A stretch of DNA of 16,814 bases from positions 1-16,814 of the forward strand of contig CAVUZH010000006.1 in NCBI GenBank assembly GCA_963745835.1, given 5' to 3'. The DNA comes from an uncultured delta proteobacterium. GTDB taxonomy: Bacteria; Desulfobacterota; Binatia; UBA9968. The notes under the pieces were generated by a model, which saw nothing but the letters and a program-made list of their open reading frames with translations, ran no database searches and was not told the DNA's origin. Positions 6,624 through 13,465 of the stretch are shown here, one piece after another. Every line of letters starts with the position of its first letter. Position 1 is the first letter of the stretch. The position numbers were made by a program, and so were the translations under genes.

Positions 6624-7421
6624 ATGGCCGCGAAAATCAAACATCTAGCGATCATCAGCGACAACTACGCTTTGTTGAGCCGGTTCTATGAAGCGCTATT
6701 CGGCATGAAAACTTCAAAATCACCCCGGCCGGAAAGCGCCGTGGCGATCGGCGACGGTTATGTCGGCATGAACATCATTCCGCAGAAGCTGGGACGGCAG
6801 GCGGGCCTGGAGCATTTTGGATTGGAAGTCGAAGATGTCGAAAAAATAACGGGCCGCTTGCGCGAGAAGTATCCGTCCGTACAGCTGATCAAGAGACCGA
6901 CCAATCGCCCCTTCGCCGGCATCAGCACCCACGATCCGGAAGGTTATGTCTTCGACTTATCCCAGCAGAATATGACCAATCGGGGCGAAGTGTATGTTGA
7001 AGGCGAATGGAAGCAGGATCGGTATGTAAGCCACTTCGTCCTGCGCGCGCTTAATCCGGGCAATCTGGCGAAGTTCTATCGTGAGATCTATGACCTTCAC
7101 GAAATGGAGAAGCCAGCCGACGATCCCAACCATTATCTCAGCGACGGCCGGATGACGATGATCATCTCGCCCTGGGCGATCACCGACTTCGAAGGCGCCG
7201 GCATCGAGCCGCGACATATGGATCACCTGGGGTTCAGAGTTGAGGATGTCGAATCGTTCAAAAAGGATCTTCAGGAAATGGTCAAAAGAAACCCTGCCCT
7301 TGCGCCCAAACCCGGCGGCACCGAAGGCGATATCAGGCTCAAGCTGCTCGCCAAGTGCAAGCACGGACAGTTTCAGCTTGCCGATCCCGATGGCGTGCCC
7401 ATCGACGTGGCAGCGCGTTAA
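6624..7421 (+). CDS. Two-domain VOC (glyoxalase/extradiol dioxygenase-like) family protein
   Basis: Repeated VOC modules KHLAI..FYEALFG..EHFGLEVEDV..DPEG and SHFVL..FYREIY..DHLGFRVEDV..DPDG. It lies 12 bp downstream of the SBP gene, so probably the same operon. Confidence 0.9.
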   Translation: MAAKIKHLAIISDNYALLSRFYEALFGMKTSKSPRPESAVAIGDGYVGMNIIPQKLGRQAGLEHFGLEVEDVEKITGRLREKYPSVQLIKRPTNRPFAGISTHDPEGYVFDLSQQNMTNRGEVYVEGEWKQDRYVSHFVLRALNPGNLAKFYREIYDLHEMEKPADDPNHYLSDGRMTMIISPWAITDFEGAGIEPRHMDHLGFRVEDVESFKKDLQEMVKRNPALAPKPGGTEGDIRLKLLAKCKHGQFQLADPDGVPIDVAAR

Positions 7422-7461
7422 GCCACATAGGTAAGATCTCGGCGGGTATGGTGTCCCCCTG

Positions 7462-8415
7462 ATGGGAGTGGTTAACGATGACCGAGCTTACCCCGCTCCA
7501 CAGCTCCAGACGTTTGCTGGTCAATTCGAATTGCGTGACTGGAAACAGGCGCGTCGGATCGAAACGCCGAGCGGATCGATCGCATGGGAGTTGAACGGGG
7601 TACTGGTATCGTGTCAGTCCGCTGTGCTCACGCTTGCCGTTGGCAAGCCTGAGGGTGTCCTAGTGGCCGGTGGTGCGAGAAAGCTCCTTACGCCGGTCGA
7701 AGGGGAACTGCGCGTCGATACAACGACTTTTGCTCTGAAGTCCCACTTCGTTCCTGAGAAGCCTGATAGGGCCACGGGCTCTCTCGAGATACGTAAGCAC
7801 CGGCGTACGCTCGGGTTCAACTTGGAGCTTCGGCGAAACCGCCTCACGGCCACCGTGTTTGCCCGCACAAGCAAGGACGAACCCGTTGCGGCGCAGGTTT
7901 TCCTGTTCTATCGGATCGGTGAGAAGGCACCGCCACGCCGCGCACCAGAGAAGGCACCTTCTCCGATCACGCCGCCAAAGCCGAGTGCGCCGAACCCGGT
8001 GCCACCAGCGCCGGCTGAGAAATTAGCAACATCGCAAGCGAGCATTTCCAGTGTCCGACAGATTTCATCCAACGAACAGAGGTTGTCGGGACATTGGGTG
8101 TACCAGGAATTCTATTCCTCCGGGCGCGGCGAACTTCACATGATGCTCTTACGTAACGGGCACTGTGTGCGAACAAGCAACAGTGTAGCGACGTTAATAC
8201 TTCATGATAGCGCGGGTAATTGGACAGGCTTCATGGAGCGGGCTTCGGCCCTGGATCCGGGCGACCGTGGCAAGTGGCGATTCGACGGCCGGTTGCTCAC
8301 GCTGGAGATGGACGACGACAGCACCTACGAGTACACCGTAACGCTCTCGGGCACATCGATGACAACGCGCAACACGACAGGAGGCGCACAGCGGCTTTGG
8401 ACGAAAGAACGCTGA
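7462..8415 (+). CDS. Hypothetical two-domain protein with Pro-rich linker and C-terminal lipocalin-like beta domain
   Basis: 317-aa ORF with linker KAPPRRAPEKAPSPITPPKPSAPNPVPPAPAEK. The C-terminal LSGHW...GKWRFDGRLLTL...LWTK pattern is typical of lipocalin-like barrels. Start uncertain, as GGGAG at 7464 precedes an out-of-frame ATG at 7478. Confidence 0.65.
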   Translation: MGVVNDDRAYPAPQLQTFAGQFELRDWKQARRIETPSGSIAWELNGVLVSCQSAVLTLAVGKPEGVLVAGGARKLLTPVEGELRVDTTTFALKSHFVPEKPDRATGSLEIRKHRRTLGFNLELRRNRLTATVFARTSKDEPVAAQVFLFYRIGEKAPPRRAPEKAPSPITPPKPSAPNPVPPAPAEKLATSQASISSVRQISSNEQRLSGHWVYQEFYSSGRGELHMMLLRNGHCVRTSNSVATLILHDSAGNWTGFMERASALDPGDRGKWRFDGRLLTLEMDDDSTYEYTVTLSGTSMTTRNTTGGAQRLWTKER

Positions 8416-8431
8416 TGTGGCGAGATGAAAA

Positions 8432-8635
8432 TGCGCGGGCATCAACCGTCGCACATGAACCATCTGGGTTCAGAGTTGAAGATGTCGAATCATTTAAAAA
8501 AGACCTTCAAGCTTATTCAAGAAACGCGCGCTTGCGGCGCCAAAACCCGGCGGAAACCCAAGCCGATGTCAAGACTCAACTCCTCGCGAAGTGACACCAA
8601 CGCGAAGTCCAACTCACCGATCGACGTCTCCGCCG
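8432..8635 (+). pseudogene. Degenerate remnant of the 3' end of a VOC gene paralogous to 6624-7421
   Basis: GGGTTCAGAGTTGA is identical at 7230-7243 and 8466-8479. Both copies translate to GFRVEDVESFKKDLQ, and similarity continues through LLAK and ATCGACGT (7401 / 8620) with indels and a stop. Confidence 0.85.
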
Positions 8636-8650
8636 TTTTCGAAACATTAC

Positions 8651-8703
8651 GACGGGGCGGCCAGCAACGGCCCGCCCTAAAATGGCTCACTTAATAGTTA
8701 GGC
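8651..8703 (+). other. attC-like site 1 (right half only)
   Basis: Hairpin GGGCGGCC/GGCCCGCCC followed by GGCTCACTTAATA-GTTAGGC. The GTTRRRY core is at 8697-8703, 16 bp before the TIR start codon. No left-hand RYYYAAC is visible. Confidence 0.65.
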
Positions 8704-8719
8704 AGCTAGGACTCTCATT

Positions 8720-9694
8720 ATGGACCAACAATTGATCGAAGTACCTCTTGATGTTTTATTTTCGCTCTTGAATCTCGATCAACCGGATGAAAACCGGACG
8801 TTCTACGTAAATTTCCGCCCATGCATCGAGGATCAAGGGTTGGCGGACCGGTTATATGGAGCTGGATTTCCCGCAATTTCATTCACCGACCTACCGGAAT
8901 ATAGAGAAGCCGCAATTACGCTGACAGCCGAGATTAGACACCATGTTCCAACTGGTCCAAGTGTCCAGATCGGCGGCGTTGATTTACCCCTTGAAGGGGG
9001 TCTTACTGGCTTAAGCCACTACCTCCGATGGCGCAACTCCGAGACGTCGTCTGTCGAATGGGTCGTGCATTACCAGGTCGGAGGCGAAAATTACAAAGTA
9101 AGCCCGAACAATGGACGAGTTCCGATAGCGGAACTCTCAGGTGCGGCCCGAAAAGCAATTCGTAATCTGGACGGTCTAGCTACAGAAACCGCATATGATC
9201 GATTTGCGCGCCTTGTTTCCAAGGCAGCAAAACCGTCAGGAGGAATCCAGCTGATTCCTCGTAAACGCAAAGTCTTCATTTCGTACCGACAGCCAGACTT
9301 AGACGTTGCGGAAAGTGTATATGAGCGGTTCAATTCGTATGGTCACGGCGCACACTTCGCACCATACCTCGATCGGCACGACCTCAAGCTGGGTGATTTG
9401 CGTTCGCAATTAGAGACACGGATCCGAGAAGCGGATCTCTTTGTACCTCTTGTTACGGATCGTTATGCTCAAGAGGGCAGCATAAGCGCTGAGGAGCTTG
9501 GTTGGGCCCGAGCTGAAGGGAAGCATCGGAGAGAGCACTGCGGCTTTATTGCGCCGATCTATATCGGTAGTCCGAAGTCCGATGTGGCTCGTATGTTGAA
9601 TCACTTAGTCCGACTCCCGATCGTCGATCTGAAGGAGATCCGGTCGCAAGCAAAAAATGTCGAGGACTTTCTCCGCATGTGCGTTGTTCCATAA
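8720..9694 (+). CDS. TIR-domain protein (C-terminal TIR_2-like domain, unrecognised ~180-aa N-terminal domain)
   Basis: KVFISYRQPD...YLDRHDLKLGD...IREADLFVPLVTDRY..SISAEELGWA...FIAPIYI follows the bacterial TIR pattern, with Glu at the catalytic (xxEL) position. RBS AGGA. Confidence 0.88.
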   Translation: MDQQLIEVPLDVLFSLLNLDQPDENRTFYVNFRPCIEDQGLADRLYGAGFPAISFTDLPEYREAAITLTAEIRHHVPTGPSVQIGGVDLPLEGGLTGLSHYLRWRNSETSSVEWVVHYQVGGENYKVSPNNGRVPIAELSGAARKAIRNLDGLATETAYDRFARLVSKAAKPSGGIQLIPRKRKVFISYRQPDLDVAESVYERFNSYGHGAHFAPYLDRHDLKLGDLRSQLETRIREADLFVPLVTDRYAQEGSISAEELGWARAEGKHRREHCGFIAPIYIGSPKSDVARMLNHLVRLPIVDLKEIRSQAKNVEDFLRMCVVP

Positions 9695-9698
9695 GGCT

Positions 9699-9778
9699 GG
9701 CTAACAAGCGGGTGAAGCTGACTCGGACAATATTTGGATTGACCTCAGCAACATGCCCGTGCAGCTTACCCTTAGTGC
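9699..9778 (+). other. attC-like site 2 (degenerate right end)
   Basis: GGCTAAC-AAGC-GGGTGAAGCTG starts 4 bp after the TIR stop. It pairs with CAGCTTACCC (9762-9771) leaving an extrahelical G. The terminal spacer and GTTRRRY are reduced to TTAGTGC. Confidence 0.7.
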
Positions 9779-9803
9779 TTATATTAGTGCCTATACTAGT
9801 ACT
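9772..9803. repeat. 12-bp tandem direct repeats upstream of the TA operon
   Basis: TTAGTGCTTATA / TTAGTGCCTATA / CTAGTACT, overlapping a TATACT -10-like hexamer. Confidence 0.6.
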
Positions 9804-9881
9804 GGTCCCTTTGAATGAATAATTTTCGTTTATTCGCATTTTGCCCTTCCTGATGATAACCTCGCGGTCAAAGGTGATTCT

Positions 9882-10079
9882 ATGAGCACCCTTACGATCA
9901 CACTCTCTGATGACCGCCTTGCCAAGCTGCAAGAAATTGCCGATCGCTTTAACATAAAAGCGGAGGACTTGGCCCGAGTCAGCGTTGAGGAGCTACTGAC
10001 GCGGCCCGACGAGTCCTTCCAGCAGGCCGCCGACTACATCCTTCACAAAAACGCCGAACTCTATCGACGTCTCGCCTAG
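9882..10079 (+). CDS. Type II antitoxin, CopG/ribbon-helix-helix-like DNA-binding protein
   Basis: 65 aa with an N-terminal alternating strand (TLTITLSDD) followed by helices, and C-terminal KNAELYRRLA. Its stop overlaps the toxin start (TAGTG). Confidence 0.85.
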   Translation: MSTLTITLSDDRLAKLQEIADRFNIKAEDLARVSVEELLTRPDESFQQAADYILHKNAELYRRLA

Positions 10080-10465
10080 TGCGCTATCTAACATTAAGTG
10101 AAGCGTTGGAATTGCATCGCCGAGTTATCGGTCAGTCTGGGGGAGCTTTAGGAGTTCTCAATCTAGCCGCTTTGGAATCGTCGCTGACTCAACCGCGCAT
10201 GACGTTTGGGGGCACAGAGCTGTACCCATCGATTGTGGACAAGGCGGCCGTGCTTGGCTATTCGCTTATTCAGAACCATCCGTTCTTGGACGGCAACAAG
10301 CGCACCGGTCATGCAGCCATGGAGGTCTTTCTGCTTCTCAACCATTGTGAGATTCAGGCGTCAGTCGATGAACAGGAAAGAATTGTCTTGCAGGTGGCAT
10401 CCGGCAAAATGGATCGAGAAGCATTTACGCTTTGGCTTCGTGACCATGTTACAGCAGAATGCTGA
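10079..10465 (+). CDS. doc: Death-on-curing (Doc/Fic) family toxin
   Basis: 128 aa with NHPFLDGNKRTG Doc-type Fic motif, an N-terminal LELHRRVI and LYPSIVDKAA. Confidence 0.93.
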   Translation: MRYLTLSEALELHRRVIGQSGGALGVLNLAALESSLTQPRMTFGGTELYPSIVDKAAVLGYSLIQNHPFLDGNKRTGHAAMEVFLLLNHCEIQASVDEQERIVLQVASGKMDREAFTLWLRDHVTAEC

Positions 10466-10473
10466 AGGTCGGA

Positions 10474-10531
10474 GGCTAACCATTCGATTCGGACTGATCG
10501 CTAGAAGCGACAGCCGAGCGTTTCGTTTTGT
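10474..10531 (+). other. attC-like site 3 (degenerate)
   Basis: GGCTAAC-CATTCG begins 8 bp after the doc stop. Bulged hairpin TCGG-a-CTG-a-TCGC/GCGA-CAG-CCGA, ending in a degenerate GTTTTGT. Confidence 0.55.
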
Positions 10532-10544
10532 GTAAGGGAGAACG

Positions 10545-11310
10545 GTGGACGTAAACCGTTTACAGCATCTTTGGGCGGTTACCCGGCGACTTCCGTATGC
10601 GTTTCGGATTATGTCCGCTGGCTCGGTGATAATCCGAACATCGACTTAGAGCACAATGACCTCATTTCGGTTGTGGAAGCCGAGGATGTCGAATGTCTTG
10701 AAAAGCTGGAGTACCTTCTGTGTCGAGCTCGCGAGATCATCGGGCTGAGCGGAAAAGGACTTTAAAACTTCTTTCGTTTTCTCGACCGATCTTCACTCCC
10801 GCGATTCCGACAAGATCCACGACGTGCTAGCCGAGCCTCGTCGCGGTGAGCTCGGCGATAAGGTCCCACTCGATTCGAAAGCTCCCTCAATTCATTAATC
10901 ATGAGGGTCGGCGCCTTCCGGCGGCTGACTTCACCGCCGAGCGGGCCCGGCAAGAAGTTCGCCATCGAGCTCAAAACCATTCGAATGGAGAACAAGACCT
11001 CAGACCGGAAAATTGACGGGAAGTGCTATGATCCCATCTTGGTGGCGTGACATGTTCCGTAATAACACTAAGACAAAATACAGGACAAAATAGCAGGGCC
11101 TGGCGCAACTAGCGAATACCAAAAGACATCTGAGGTGCCATTTCGCCATGTTGGCACTCTACAATAGGAGAATGGGGCCTTCTACCTTTGACGGATACGC
11201 AGGACTATCACGACGAACTGCGCCTAATTCTGAGAAAATATCCAGAACTCGACTACATCTTCTTCAAGACTATTTCGGCGAAGTGGTGGTGTGCCCTGAA
11301 TTGTCCAGAC
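10545..11310 (+). pseudogene. Multiply frameshifted PD-(D/E)XK nuclease-like gene remnant
   Basis: RBS GGGAG and GTG at 10545. Stitched frames give VDVNRLQHL/LGGYPAT...EIIGLSG/...DKIHDVLAE/...QFINHEGRRLPAADFTAERA/GKKFAIELKTIRME.../YHDELRLILRKYPELDYIFF, with an E...D...ExK arrangement. Confidence 0.5.
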
Positions 11311-11381
11311 AATCGGCTTAACGCGGATGCTCGGCAAACTGTGTGTGCTCCGCACCAGCACATATTAGCCGTTCGTTAGAC
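11303..11381 (+). other. attC-like site 4
   Basis: GTCCA(G)AC-AAT-CGGCT(T)AA ... inner hairpin TGTGCT/AGCACA ... TTAGCCG-TTC-GTTAGAC. The GTTRRRY core is at 11375-11381 and the extra base is in the left arm, as expected for + orientation. Confidence 0.7.
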
Positions 11382-12108
11382 GGCGCTCGTACGGAACGGC
11401 AATGCAAGTGTTTCGACTTCGCTGCGCAACTTCTCAATCTTTGCCAACTCACGTCCAGTTTAGAGAAAGATTCAGAAAGATTTGGGATCAGGCTGAGCTT
11501 GCCCGATTCGACTCTTAGGTCCTTGACACCTTCTGGTAATTTTTCTTAACAAGCGGGCTCAAAAGCATTGAGCGGCTTGAGAACATCCGAAGGAGATCTT
11601 TTTGATCCGCATCGGTTACGCTTGCATCAACACTAAGCTGCCCTCCCCCAATCGCACCTGCCGGCTAAAGAACGCAACATCCGATAAGATTCTGGAGCTG
11701 GCGTCAGCCAATGTCGAAGCATTGCAGCCGATCTTGGAATGGAATGCAGCGCGGCATTGAGCTCTTCCGCATCATGTCGGATCTGATCCCATTGGCTCGC
11801 TTTCGGATTAATTCGGTCCCATGGTTCCGGATCCTTAAGCCGCAATTGCGCGGCTATAGGTTATTCGTAAGAATTCTCCGGGGATAAGTCATCGGCCAGC
11901 CCTCATAGTTACCACAATCTTGTTTGCTGCAATTAAAACGTGCGCTGTCCTGCTTCCTACAAATCGCTCCGTTTGCTTTAAGCCAGCGGACATCTCTCAT
12001 TTTACGCTCTCCCCATTGTCGTGCGTCCGCCAACCGCATTAATACATGCTAGCGGTCCGAATTGGAATGTGCGGAAATAGAGTCCGCCTCGCGAATTGCC
12101 ATTCCCAT
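11382..12108 (-). pseudogene. Probable decayed minus-strand gene of unknown function
   Basis: GGGAG plus ATG at 12108 is in frame, through one TAG, with ORF fragment 11854-12039. Further fragments follow (11633-11845 and a KIEKLRSEVETLALP-like segment near 11390-11440). No family recognised. Confidence 0.3.
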
Positions 12109-12116
12109 TTTCTCCC

Positions 12117-13465
12117 TGTAGTAGCGAAGTGAATCTGTCAGGGGTTAATGGCAACGTGATTATGTCAGGGTGGGAGGATGACAACCCTGACAATGCAAGA
12201 CGAGAAGCGACTAGAGATAATACAACGGGTGTTGCGCCGTGAGCTGACAGTGATGCAAGCCGCGCTGGTGATGGGAGTAAGCGAGCGGCAGTGTTACCGG
12301 ATCAAAGCACGGGTCGATAAGACCGGAGCCAAGGGAGTGGTTCATGGCAACCGCGGACGGCCTTGTAAACGCAAGACCAAGGAGAAGACCATTAGACAGG
12401 TCTTGGCACTAGCCCGAGGGAAATACCAAGGCTTCAACGATCACCATCTGACCGAGAAGCTCAAAGAACAAGAAAAGATCAAGCTCAGTCGAGAGAAAGT
12501 CCGGCGTGTTCTTCGTGCAAACGGGATCGGTTCCCCCAAGAGGCGCCGCGGGATCAAACACCGAAGCCGCAGAGAAAGACGGGCCAGTGAGGGGATGATG
12601 CTCCAGGTCGATGGCTCCCCGCACGACTGGCTCCAAGGACGAGGGTCGCGCCTTTGTCTGATCGGGGCCATCGACGATGCCACGAGCAAAGTCATGGGAG
12701 CCTTTTTTGCCCCGGCCGAGAGCTCCTGGGGTTACTTCCACCTGTTCTGCGAGATCTTCAAGCAGCATGGAGTGCCCCAGTCGATCTATACCGACTGTCA
12801 CTCGGTATTCTGGACCGACCGGGAACCGACGTTAGAGGAGCAGTTGATCAACAGAAAACCCACTACCGAGGTGGGCCGAGGGTTAGAAGAGCTGGGGGTG
12901 ACCTTGATCCTAGCCCATTCCCCTCAGGCCAAGGGAAGAATCGAGAGACTGTGGAACACTTTCCAGGATCGACTGGTCAGTGAGCTGCGGCTGGCCAAGG
13001 CCAAGACCGTGGAACAGGCAACCGTGGTCCTGAATCGTTATCTCATCGTTCATAACCGTAGATTCGCTGAGCCCGCTAAAGCAGAGCCGGCCTGGAGAAA
13101 ACTCAGTGCGCTTAAAATCGAAAGGGCTTTGTGTTTCAAACAACAGCGTACCGTGGCCAAGGACAACACCGTGACTTTCGAAGGTTCGGTCTTGCAGATC
13201 CCTAAGACCTCGCCCTTTCGCTCCTATGCCAACAAGAGAATCGATGTGCATGTGCTTCTCGATGGCGCGGTGGAGTTTTTCTACAACACCGAGAAAATCG
13301 CAACCTTCGATTCAAAAACAACGCACACAATTGGCCTATATCGAACGAACGGTACGAAGGTGGGGTTCCGCTATGGTCCGCTTTCTACGCTGGCGACTTT
13401 ACCTCAGGTGTCACCCTGACATTTTTACGTTGCTGTTAACATGACATATTGACGTTGCTACGACA
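12117..13465 (+). mobile_element. Complete insertion sequence, IS1202 family (formerly ISNCY), 1349 bp, with 17-bp target-site duplication
   Basis: Ends are TGT...ACA. The left end TGTAGTAGCGAAGTGAATCTGTCA matches the right-end reverse complement TGTCGTAGCAACGTCAATATGTCA. A second inner repeat GCAACGT-N4-ATGTCAGGGTG occurs at both ends. CATTCCCATTTTCTCCC flanks it at 12100-12116 and 13466-13482. Confidence 0.93.
12178..13419 (+). CDS. DDE transposase (IS1202/ISNCY type; HTH plus integrase core)
   Basis: N-terminal HTH (AALVMGVSERQCYRI) and HGNRGR. The DDE triad lies in QVDGSPHDW, IYTDCHS and SPQAKGRIER. RBS GGGAGG. Confidence 0.95.
   Translation: MTTLTMQDEKRLEIIQRVLRRELTVMQAALVMGVSERQCYRIKARVDKTGAKGVVHGNRGRPCKRKTKEKTIRQVLALARGKYQGFNDHHLTEKLKEQEKIKLSREKVRRVLRANGIGSPKRRRGIKHRSRRERRASEGMMLQVDGSPHDWLQGRGSRLCLIGAIDDATSKVMGAFFAPAESSWGYFHLFCEIFKQHGVPQSIYTDCHSVFWTDREPTLEEQLINRKPTTEVGRGLEELGVTLILAHSPQAKGRIERLWNTFQDRLVSELRLAKAKTVEQATVVLNRYLIVHNRRFAEPAKAEPAWRKLSALKIERALCFKQQRTVAKDNTVTFEGSVLQIPKTSPFRSYANKRIDVHVLLDGAVEFFYNTEKIATFDSKTTHTIGLYRTNGTKVGFRYGPLSTLATLPQVSP

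Follow-up and report, generated by a model that had tools for sequence, protein, structure and literature searches.

The TIR gene and its variable locus

The window analysed here is the whole of contig C6 (CAVUZH010000006.1; 16,814 bp) of an uncultured delta proteobacterium, whose assembly (G000) comprises 7.28 Mb in 25 contigs, with 97.1% completeness and 9.3% contamination. It carries a TIR-family gene (P0001), present as one copy in the genome, whose product joins an N-terminal alpha/beta domain (hereafter the N-domain) to a C-terminal TIR domain and which we consider a candidate single-protein, NAD+-cleaving (NADase) defence against phage. The core genes upstream encode, by Pfam, a TctC protein, a 2-hydroxyacid dehydrogenase, a GNAT protein, an NMT1-type binding protein, and a glyoxalase. 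Downstream lie a Phd-like open reading frame (ORF) and a doc gene, ~1.4 kb without convincing genes, an insertion sequence (IS) of the ISNCY family, and a second TctC gene. No SIR2/SLOG, cyclase, Argonaute, or NTPase domain was detected in the neighbouring ORFs of the window, nor any CRISPR gene in the window as a whole. The TIR gene has no adjacent partner in this genome, in agreement with the original prediction, which was made from the letters of the window and found no ThsA-like effector, cyclase, Argonaute, or NTPase beside it. That prediction had overlooked the Phd/Doc pair, the IS, and a decayed glyoxalase fragment among the neighbours.

Pfam assigned residues 185-305 of the protein to TIR_2 (PF13676; E = 1.5e-10, 42 bits against a cut-off of 28). 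The full-length AlphaFold2 model, obtained with the family alignment, reached a predicted local distance difference test (pLDDT) score of 90.0 and a predicted template modelling (pTM) score of 0.79. Foldseek comparison of this model with the PDB retrieved the TIR domains of SARM1, C. elegans TIR-1, SPARTA TIR-APAZ, AbTir, MyD88, and plant TIRs. The E-values against SARM1, SPARTA TIR-APAZ, and AbTir ranged from 2e-5 to 1e-3, with an aligned root-mean-square deviation of 3.0-3.9 Å over ~143 columns for SPARTA TIR-APAZ, and the target template modelling (TM) scores of the isolated TIR chains (SARM1, AbTir, and MyD88; 0.67-0.74) indicate a flavodoxin-like TIR fold. When the family profile was searched against PDB sequences, all 23 matches at E ≤ 0.01, Cat1 among them, fell within profile positions 176-299, corresponding to the TIR part.

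The second Glu of the motif SISAEELGWA is E259, a conserved position occupied by Glu in 28/28 rows with a residue in our 31-row family alignment as well as in 18/18 rows of a second, more distant set (both sets are described below). F186, Y189, R190, D218, and G225 are also nearly invariant in the 31-row alignment. We take the E259 column to be the catalytic one from the Sx..EL motif of TIR NADases, together with the fold matches. The original prediction had recognised a TIR domain with Glu at the catalytic position in this motif, and both points are borne out. By analogy with the TIR enzymes that it resembles, the C-terminal domain probably cleaves NAD+.

PADLOC, one of the checks proposed along with the original prediction, placed the protein in no known system. 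Its matches were weak and covered the TIR part only (SAVED_TIR, E = 6.4e-9; ThsB1, E = 1.6e-7). The sole NCBIfam match was Thoeris type III ThcB4, at 35.4 bits against a cut-off of 220, and the Pfam family ThsB_TIR did not match the protein.

The surroundings of the gene support its being an accessory, horizontally acquired gene in a variable locus flanked by a glyoxalase and a TctC gene. In three genomes of the same genus, the core sequence on either side is 89-95% identical, and what it encloses differs. In G005, ~940 bp separate the glyoxalase gene from the TctC gene, and a 177-aa ORF lies in this interval; the corresponding interval of G001 contains an ABC substrate-binding gene together with a 377-aa gene marginally matched by HNH_4 (E = 0.01). 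In these two sister species, the 377-aa gene lies on G001 contig C144 (L038 918-2051) and the 177-aa ORF on G005 contig C188 (L024 3361-3894), and the 177-aa protein had no match. Compared with G001, the TIR gene, phd/doc, and ~1.4 kb of decayed sequence form a genome-specific segment (Table 1). The GC content at third codon positions is 0.489 in the TIR gene versus 0.589-0.702 in five neighbouring core genes. Furthermore, the region 8300-10600 recurs nearly word for word in 15 sequencing runs from soil and rhizosphere, belonging to several studies (each run holding at least half of the sampled words), and contigs from three other studies carry the TIR gene in intact form, with 0-4 differences. 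Gaps in depth occur in the contigs aligned to the window, for example at 7855-8415 in run X4. The locus is a clean example of a chromosomal hot spot, bordered by glyoxalase and TctC genes, with cargo differing between sister species.

A 254-nt contig from a soil metatranscriptome library (run X16) matches positions 8895-9147, in the N-domain coding region, with 0 mismatches, and was the sole long clean RNA-library piece on the whole window; RNA runs X17-X20, which contain just 0.05-0.06 of the words, were left out. It gives a weak hint that the TIR gene is transcribed, as carry-over of DNA could also account for it. The promoter and terminator scan of positions 7300-10700 found nothing above shuffled sequences.

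Table 1. Positions of the TIR gene, its parts, and neighbouring features in the window
Feature	Position	Strand	Basis or remark
Decayed 3' end of glyoxalase gene	8430..8655	+	75% identity to 7192-7357, frame-shifted
Left 10-mer of inverted repeat, GTTAGGCAGC	8697..8706	.	Inside a 58-bp stretch shared with G001
AGGA, likely ribosome-binding site	8709..8712	+	7 nt 5' of the ATG; inferred from reading the sequence
Genome-specific segment relative to G001 (TIR gene, phd/doc, ~1.4 kb decayed sequence)	8713..11893	.	BLAST of C144 and border alignments
TIR-family gene (P0001)	8720..9694	+	324 aa plus stop; ORF list and translation
N-terminal alpha/beta domain, residues 1-170	8720..9229	+	AlphaFold2 model
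Linker, residues 171-182 (12 residues)	9230..9265	+	Least confident part of the model; block 171-180 has pLDDT 71
TIR domain, residues 183-305	9266..9634	+	Pfam TIR_2 and Foldseek
Glu259 codon, catalytic position of TIR NADases	9494..9496	+	Column conservation
Right 10-mer of inverted repeat, GCTGGCTAAC	9696..9705	.	Inside the genome-specific segment
Phd-like antitoxin (9882-10079, 65 aa) and Doc toxin (10079-10465)	9882..10465	+	187 bp downstream of the TIR gene
ISNCY-family insertion sequence	12100..13465	+	Transposase 12178-13419 (NF033594, 385 bits); 29-nt terminal inverted repeats

The N-terminal domain and its family

The N-domain was predicted by AlphaFold2 to be a beta-rich alpha/beta unit, with strands at residues 10-17, 27-34, and 82-135 and helices at 59-75 and 141-170, the latter a terminal helix of 30 residues. 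Modelled alone, residues 1-175 gave a pLDDT of 93.1 and a pTM of 0.87. The original prediction could not assign the first ~180 residues and proposed HHpred, AlphaFold, and Foldseek to identify them, and AlphaFold2 with Foldseek likewise returned no known domain. No Pfam family matched residues 1-175 at E ≤ 1. The fold search of the PDB with the N-domain yielded 0 matches at E ≤ 0.001 (best E = 0.025, TM < 0.25); the best-ranked folds were MHC-like platforms, Whirly, and PUR (TM 0.13-0.25, probability ≤ 0.23). Searching BFVD, a collection of viral structures, with the N-domain model also gave 0 matches at E ≤ 0.001. Two uncharacterised Caudovirales proteins in BFVD (probability 0.97-0.98, TM 0.43-0.46, E = 0.02-0.15) represent a lead rather than a match. 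The ESM Atlas returned nothing usable for residues 1-175. A sequence search of the PDB retrieved antibody heavy-chain variable (VH) chains (best E = 5.5e-5, others 0.04-1.6), which we rejected because the fold search gave no immunoglobulin; the resemblance is a compositional coincidence over one beta hairpin.

Relatives of the protein are rare. The word-indexed search of 5.8 billion proteins found 4 entries, namely the query and three relatives (82%, 51%, and 39% identity). An identical protein lies on a contig of 80.8 kb, and the family members P0007 and P0013 and the fragment P0093 lie on contigs of 24.6, 9.7, and 335 kb, respectively. An exhaustive HMMER search of 1.84 billion cluster representatives returned 88 matches at E ≤ 1e-3, including 41 at ≤ 1e-10 and 14 at ≤ 1e-30. 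The HMMER matches extending into the N-terminal half make up the 31-row alignment, in which 28 rows have both domains, the remaining 3 being N-terminal fragments; Pfam TIR_2 likewise matched 28/31 family members. We also assembled a distant set of 18 more matches, picked by length (301-340 aa), that align to the query only from about residue 110-180 on. Their N-terminal parts proved homologous to the N-domain by hhalign (probability 98.4%, E = 7.9e-15, 155 columns). Judged from these alignments, one layout of N-domain followed by TIR is common to at least 46 representative clusters of 301-363 aa.

The association with TIR was further addressed with a profile of the N-domain only, built from 13 sequences. 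PF13676 was present in 4/4 of the longer matches to this profile and in 2/4 of the near-length ones, the other 2, at 142 and 97 aa, being fragments. Within the reach of these searches, which were limited, the N-domain appears to occur only with TIR. The genome of the window encodes 6 TIR_2 genes (on C6, C8, C9, C13, C16, and C19), and the N-domain described here is found only in the one on C6.

Full-length family members were not found in 60 related genomes, in 400 genomes sampled from the phylum, or in 400 sampled from the class (0/60, 0/400, and 0/400, respectively), where the other matches covered the TIR part only, and single-protein scans of GTDB genomes found no family member. Nearly all members observed to date come from assemblies of soil or other environments.

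Within the 31-row alignment, E71 (30/31) and L139 (30/31) are the outstanding residues of the N-terminal half, in which H100 (22/31) and W104 (24 of the 26 rows with a residue) are also conserved. The mean pairwise identity over 378 pairs is 22% for the N-domain versus 36% for TIR, so the N-domain is diverging faster than TIR, which fits a recognition module.

The near-invariant polar and aromatic residues E71, H100, and W104 could line a pocket, and they would suit a protein in which the N-domain is a ligand receiver, comparable to SAVED, STING, or CARF, that switches on the TIR effector in response to a second messenger made elsewhere. TIR effectors are established in CBASS, Pycsar, and type III CRISPR systems (bioRxiv 10.64898/2025.12.03.692087). 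The best PADLOC match is to a SAVED-TIR effector model, through the TIR part only, and Cat1 appears among the PDB matches. However, the N-domain showed no match to SAVED, STING, or CARF by Pfam, or to their structures in the PDB fold search, nor did it resemble any Pfam family. Such effectors normally share an operon with their signal generator, and the window contains neither a cyclase nor a CRISPR gene. We therefore regard a signal-activated effector as rather improbable.

Taken over the searches made, the N-domain is new, being without a family, a solved relative, or a viral structural match, yet it is conserved and exclusive to TIR proteins.

Proposed function and related systems

We propose that the gene encodes a stand-alone, two-domain NADase that would act in abortive infection as a single protein, in the manner of SpbK, and we put the probability of this reading at roughly 0.55. 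the sensor role, the activation by clustering, and the anti-phage function are proposed by analogy. Under this proposal, the N-domain would keep the TIR enzyme inactive and sense a sign of phage infection, for which a phage protein is the most likely candidate. By binding to a multivalent phage structure, the protein would bring its TIR domains to a higher local concentration and cause them to cluster, and active sites would form between neighbouring TIRs. The ensuing depletion of NAD+ would then stop the growth of the infected cell, as for SpbK. Predicted self-association of two copies of the protein scored 0.00 in both runs, which is evidence neither way.

The combination of sensor and TIR in one gene is an already known kind of system. 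SpbK of Bacillus subtilis ICEBs1, from which we borrow the mechanism, is described as an N-terminal sensor and a TIR domain made from one gene and activated by clustering on the phage portal (PMC12847820). Like our gene, it is a single gene without a partner, carried on acquired DNA. The sensors differ, since the N-domain of SpbK is given there as a 94-residue four-helix bundle (PMC12847820), in contrast to the ~170-residue beta-rich alpha/beta domain with two long helices found here. Moreover, no chain named SpbK was among the 23 PDB matches (E ≤ 0.01), and PADLOC pointed only to SAVED_TIR and ThsB1.

In a study of E. coli TIR systems (Wang et al. 2024), 12/32 defended against phage, and 4 of 9 new ones were single proteins (PMC11350192). 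TIR-II, V, VI, and IX of that study are stand-alone TIR defences requiring the catalytic residue, a description that the present protein resembles as a candidate only, and some of the systems likewise join TIR to unannotated sequence. The E. coli systems are set apart by TPR, transmembrane, AAA, and DUF4238 parts that are not found in the window protein (PMC11350192). In a systematic survey, TIR proteins that stand alone were put aside as likely to be effectors that deplete NAD+ (bioRxiv 10.64898/2025.12.03.692087). The TIR proteins of CBASS (TIR-SAVED and TIR-STING), Pycsar, and SPARTA, as well as Cat1, have the same catalytic fold, but the protein here contains no SAVED, STING, cNMP-binding, APAZ, or CARF domain, and no cyclase or Argonaute is nearby.

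Several observations weigh against the single-protein defence. The family was not found in the phage, plasmid, and IMG/VR collections searched, and no PADLOC model covers the N-domain. PADLOC recognised the cargo of neither sister species (0/2) and so gives no support for calling this variable spot a defence island. Only one other family locus was retrieved, by a metagenome scan; at 1.6 kb it is too short to exclude a partner, and an open frame with a TTG start begins in it 34 bp after the stop of the TIR gene. The nucleotide hydrolases DNPH1 and MilB, which have a flavodoxin-like fold, were also among the Foldseek matches of the full model (E = 4e-4 to 7e-4). Finally, ORFs with SIR2_2 and STALD/SLOG domains on contig C3 make a signalling role possible.

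The last of these points bears on the Thoeris TIR protein ThsB, which resembles our protein in joining TIR to a variable non-TIR part thought to sense phage. A signal-producing TIR of this type would make a cyclic ADP-ribose-type signal for an effector encoded elsewhere, such as the SIR2-SLOG gene on C3. The similarity of the TIR part to ThsB1 (PADLOC) and ThcB4 (NCBIfam), weak as it is, would agree with such a role, as would the many Thoeris types that pair varied TIRs with ~30 effectors, reported in the survey (bioRxiv 10.64898/2025.12.03.692087). However, the ThcB4 score is far below its cut-off, and ThsB_TIR is not matched. Thoeris TIRs are defined by operon linkage to an adjacent effector (ThsA with SIR2-SLOG, Macro, or another), whereas none stands beside the TIR gene or elsewhere adjacent in the window. 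The C3 locus, in addition, already includes a ThsB_TIR fragment, with SIR2 and SLOG divided between two ORFs. It occupies ~470,000-476,900 of C3 (L050 4053-10318), where fragmented type I restriction-modification genes are followed in our annotation by SIR2_2, STALD/SLOG, a partial ThsB_TIR, and Fic_N/Fic, and it looks like a split or decayed type I Thoeris system in a defence island, or a misassembly. On balance, we judge a ThsB-like role for the window protein to be unlikely.

The hydrolases among the fold matches raise the alternative that the protein has no immune function and instead takes part in NAD or nucleoside metabolism, serves as an interbacterial toxin or in an addiction module, or is drifting to loss. 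The surrounding segment is rich in decayed sequence, the other cargo of the hot spot lacks PADLOC support, and 20/32 of the tested E. coli TIR systems showed no defence (PMC11350192). Against such roles, no signal peptide, secretion-associated gene, or immunity gene was seen beside the TIR gene. More than 46 clusters strictly retain both the catalytic Glu and the motifs of the TIR domain, and the contigs of three other studies carry the gene intact. Its scattered occurrence and foreign codon usage are, moreover, what conflict genes typically show. We think it unlikely that the role is non-immune, and we retain the SpbK-type NADase as the preferred reading.

Recognition modules decide the usefulness and the biology of single-protein TIR defences, and few of them are understood, SpbK being the best studied. 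If the N-domain is a sensor, it adds a new sensor type, with a trigger to be found, in soil bacteria that are poorly covered by screens centred on E. coli and Bacillus. We tentatively suggest that it represents a previously undescribed fold confined to TIR enzymes, in which it would serve as the recognition module, and that the at least 46 clusters form a new single-gene anti-phage family. In a bolder version, the conserved Glu71, His100, and Trp104 may form a pocket for a small-molecule alarm signal, which would make the N-domain a new class of signal receiver.

Integron-type motifs and neighbouring sequence

The original prediction had described the gene as an excisable cassette bracketed by an inverted repeat. 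The two 10-mers (Table 1) are as it gave them, complementary at 9/10 positions, but their pairing is not beyond chance, and the cassette idea was not supported. Among 3000 random genome pairs, 94 (3.1%) had an inverted 10-mer pair of at least 9/10 no more than 40 nt from the two ends of a ~1-kb segment, a rate per gene that gives about a 1/3 chance of at least one such pair for the 13 ORFs of the window; the other 12 ORFs had no such repeat (best 8/10). The left arm is conserved backbone, lying in a stretch (8656-8712) also present in G001, where the TIR gene is missing and the 10-mer reads GTTGGGGCAT. None of 14 listed joints in four other runs skips 8697-9705, a result from contigs, which drop rare forms.

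Integron cassettes can carry phage-defence genes, and toxin-antitoxin cassettes are common in chromosomal integrons. The TIR gene could be pictured as a cassette of the integron type, whether still active or already decayed, that lies between GTTRRRY/RYYYAAC core sites in an array with phd/doc, a question that bears on its mobility and not on its function. It shares with integron defence cassettes a small, promoter-poor gene, motifs fitting GTTRRRY/RYYYAAC, and a toxin-antitoxin neighbour. Both 10-mers fit the core-site consensus, the homology with G001 ends a few bases after GTTAGGC, and GGCTAAC stands 3' of both the TIR and doc stops (9699-9705, 5 nt after the former, and 10474-10480, 9 nt after the latter).

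The differences from integron cassettes are nevertheless extensive. GTTAGGC occurs once in the window versus 1.36 expected, and no GTTRRRY partner that would close the cassette follows the TIR gene. The flanks and all three canonical RYYYAAC/GTTRRRY pairings in the window were folded as single-stranded DNA on both strands, and 0/8 candidate stretches beat shuffled sequence as attC-type hairpins (z +1.2 to -1.9). Past the right 10-mer, the sequence folds only into an imperfect hairpin, which does not surpass those of shuffled sequences (z -1.1 to -1.3). The number of canonical motif pairs in the window, three, agrees with the genome background of ~0.9 per 16.8 kb. None of 14 tyrosine-recombinase matches reached the cut-off of 265 for the integron integrase TIGR02249, the best scoring 86.1 bits. 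The regions after the TIR and doc stops have only the 7-mer GGCTAAC in common, rather than belonging to a repeated attC family. Behind long open frames genome-wide, GGCTAAC was found in 15/19,734 tails and is not enriched (ratio 0.028 versus 0.021 ± 0.005 for 40 permuted 7-mers). The cassette reading is hence very improbable, and the GGCTAAC after both stops may have arisen by chance or be a final remnant of former attC sites. As a separate observation, the canonical GCCTAAC is ~2.6 times commoner than permuted 7-mers behind long open frames (24 tails).

Two ORFs upstream of the TIR gene were considered as partners. The 89-aa ORF at 8425-8694 was rejected as a gene, partner, or antitoxin, as it overlies the glyoxalase relic, whose homologous frame is a different one. 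The relic may testify to a past recombination event through which the foreign segment arrived. The 317-aa ORF at 7462-8415 has two beta-rich halves joined by a proline-rich linker and is missing at the same position in G001 and G005. It had no Pfam, PADLOC, or NCBIfam match, and the ESM Atlas gave only sub-threshold, lipocalin-like leads (0.83). As a candidate partner, it is separated from the TIR gene by the glyoxalase relic and backbone sequence.

On the downstream side, Doc was identified by Pfam Fic/DOC (E = 5.5e-19) and TIGR01550 (53.7 bits against a cut-off of 38.65), and the Phd-like antitoxin, which matched no family, owes its name to where it lies and to the 1 nt by which it overlaps doc. 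Doc also partly matches the PADLOC candidate families PDC-S23 and PDC-M59B. Neither an Rfam family nor a tRNA gene was found in the window.

Three more copies of the IS, at ≥ 98.9% identity, lie on C14, C18, and C9, and these tie the small contig C6 to the bin. In contigs of two other studies, the IS site is empty, with 12099 joined to 13466 and 18 nt fitting both sides, which indicates that the insertion is recent and polymorphic. Lastly, within the gene-poor segment, positions 11590-11855 (266 bp) have an 81% identical copy on C3 (443,414-443,683), and this piece looks like a gene fragment duplicated or transferred within the genome.

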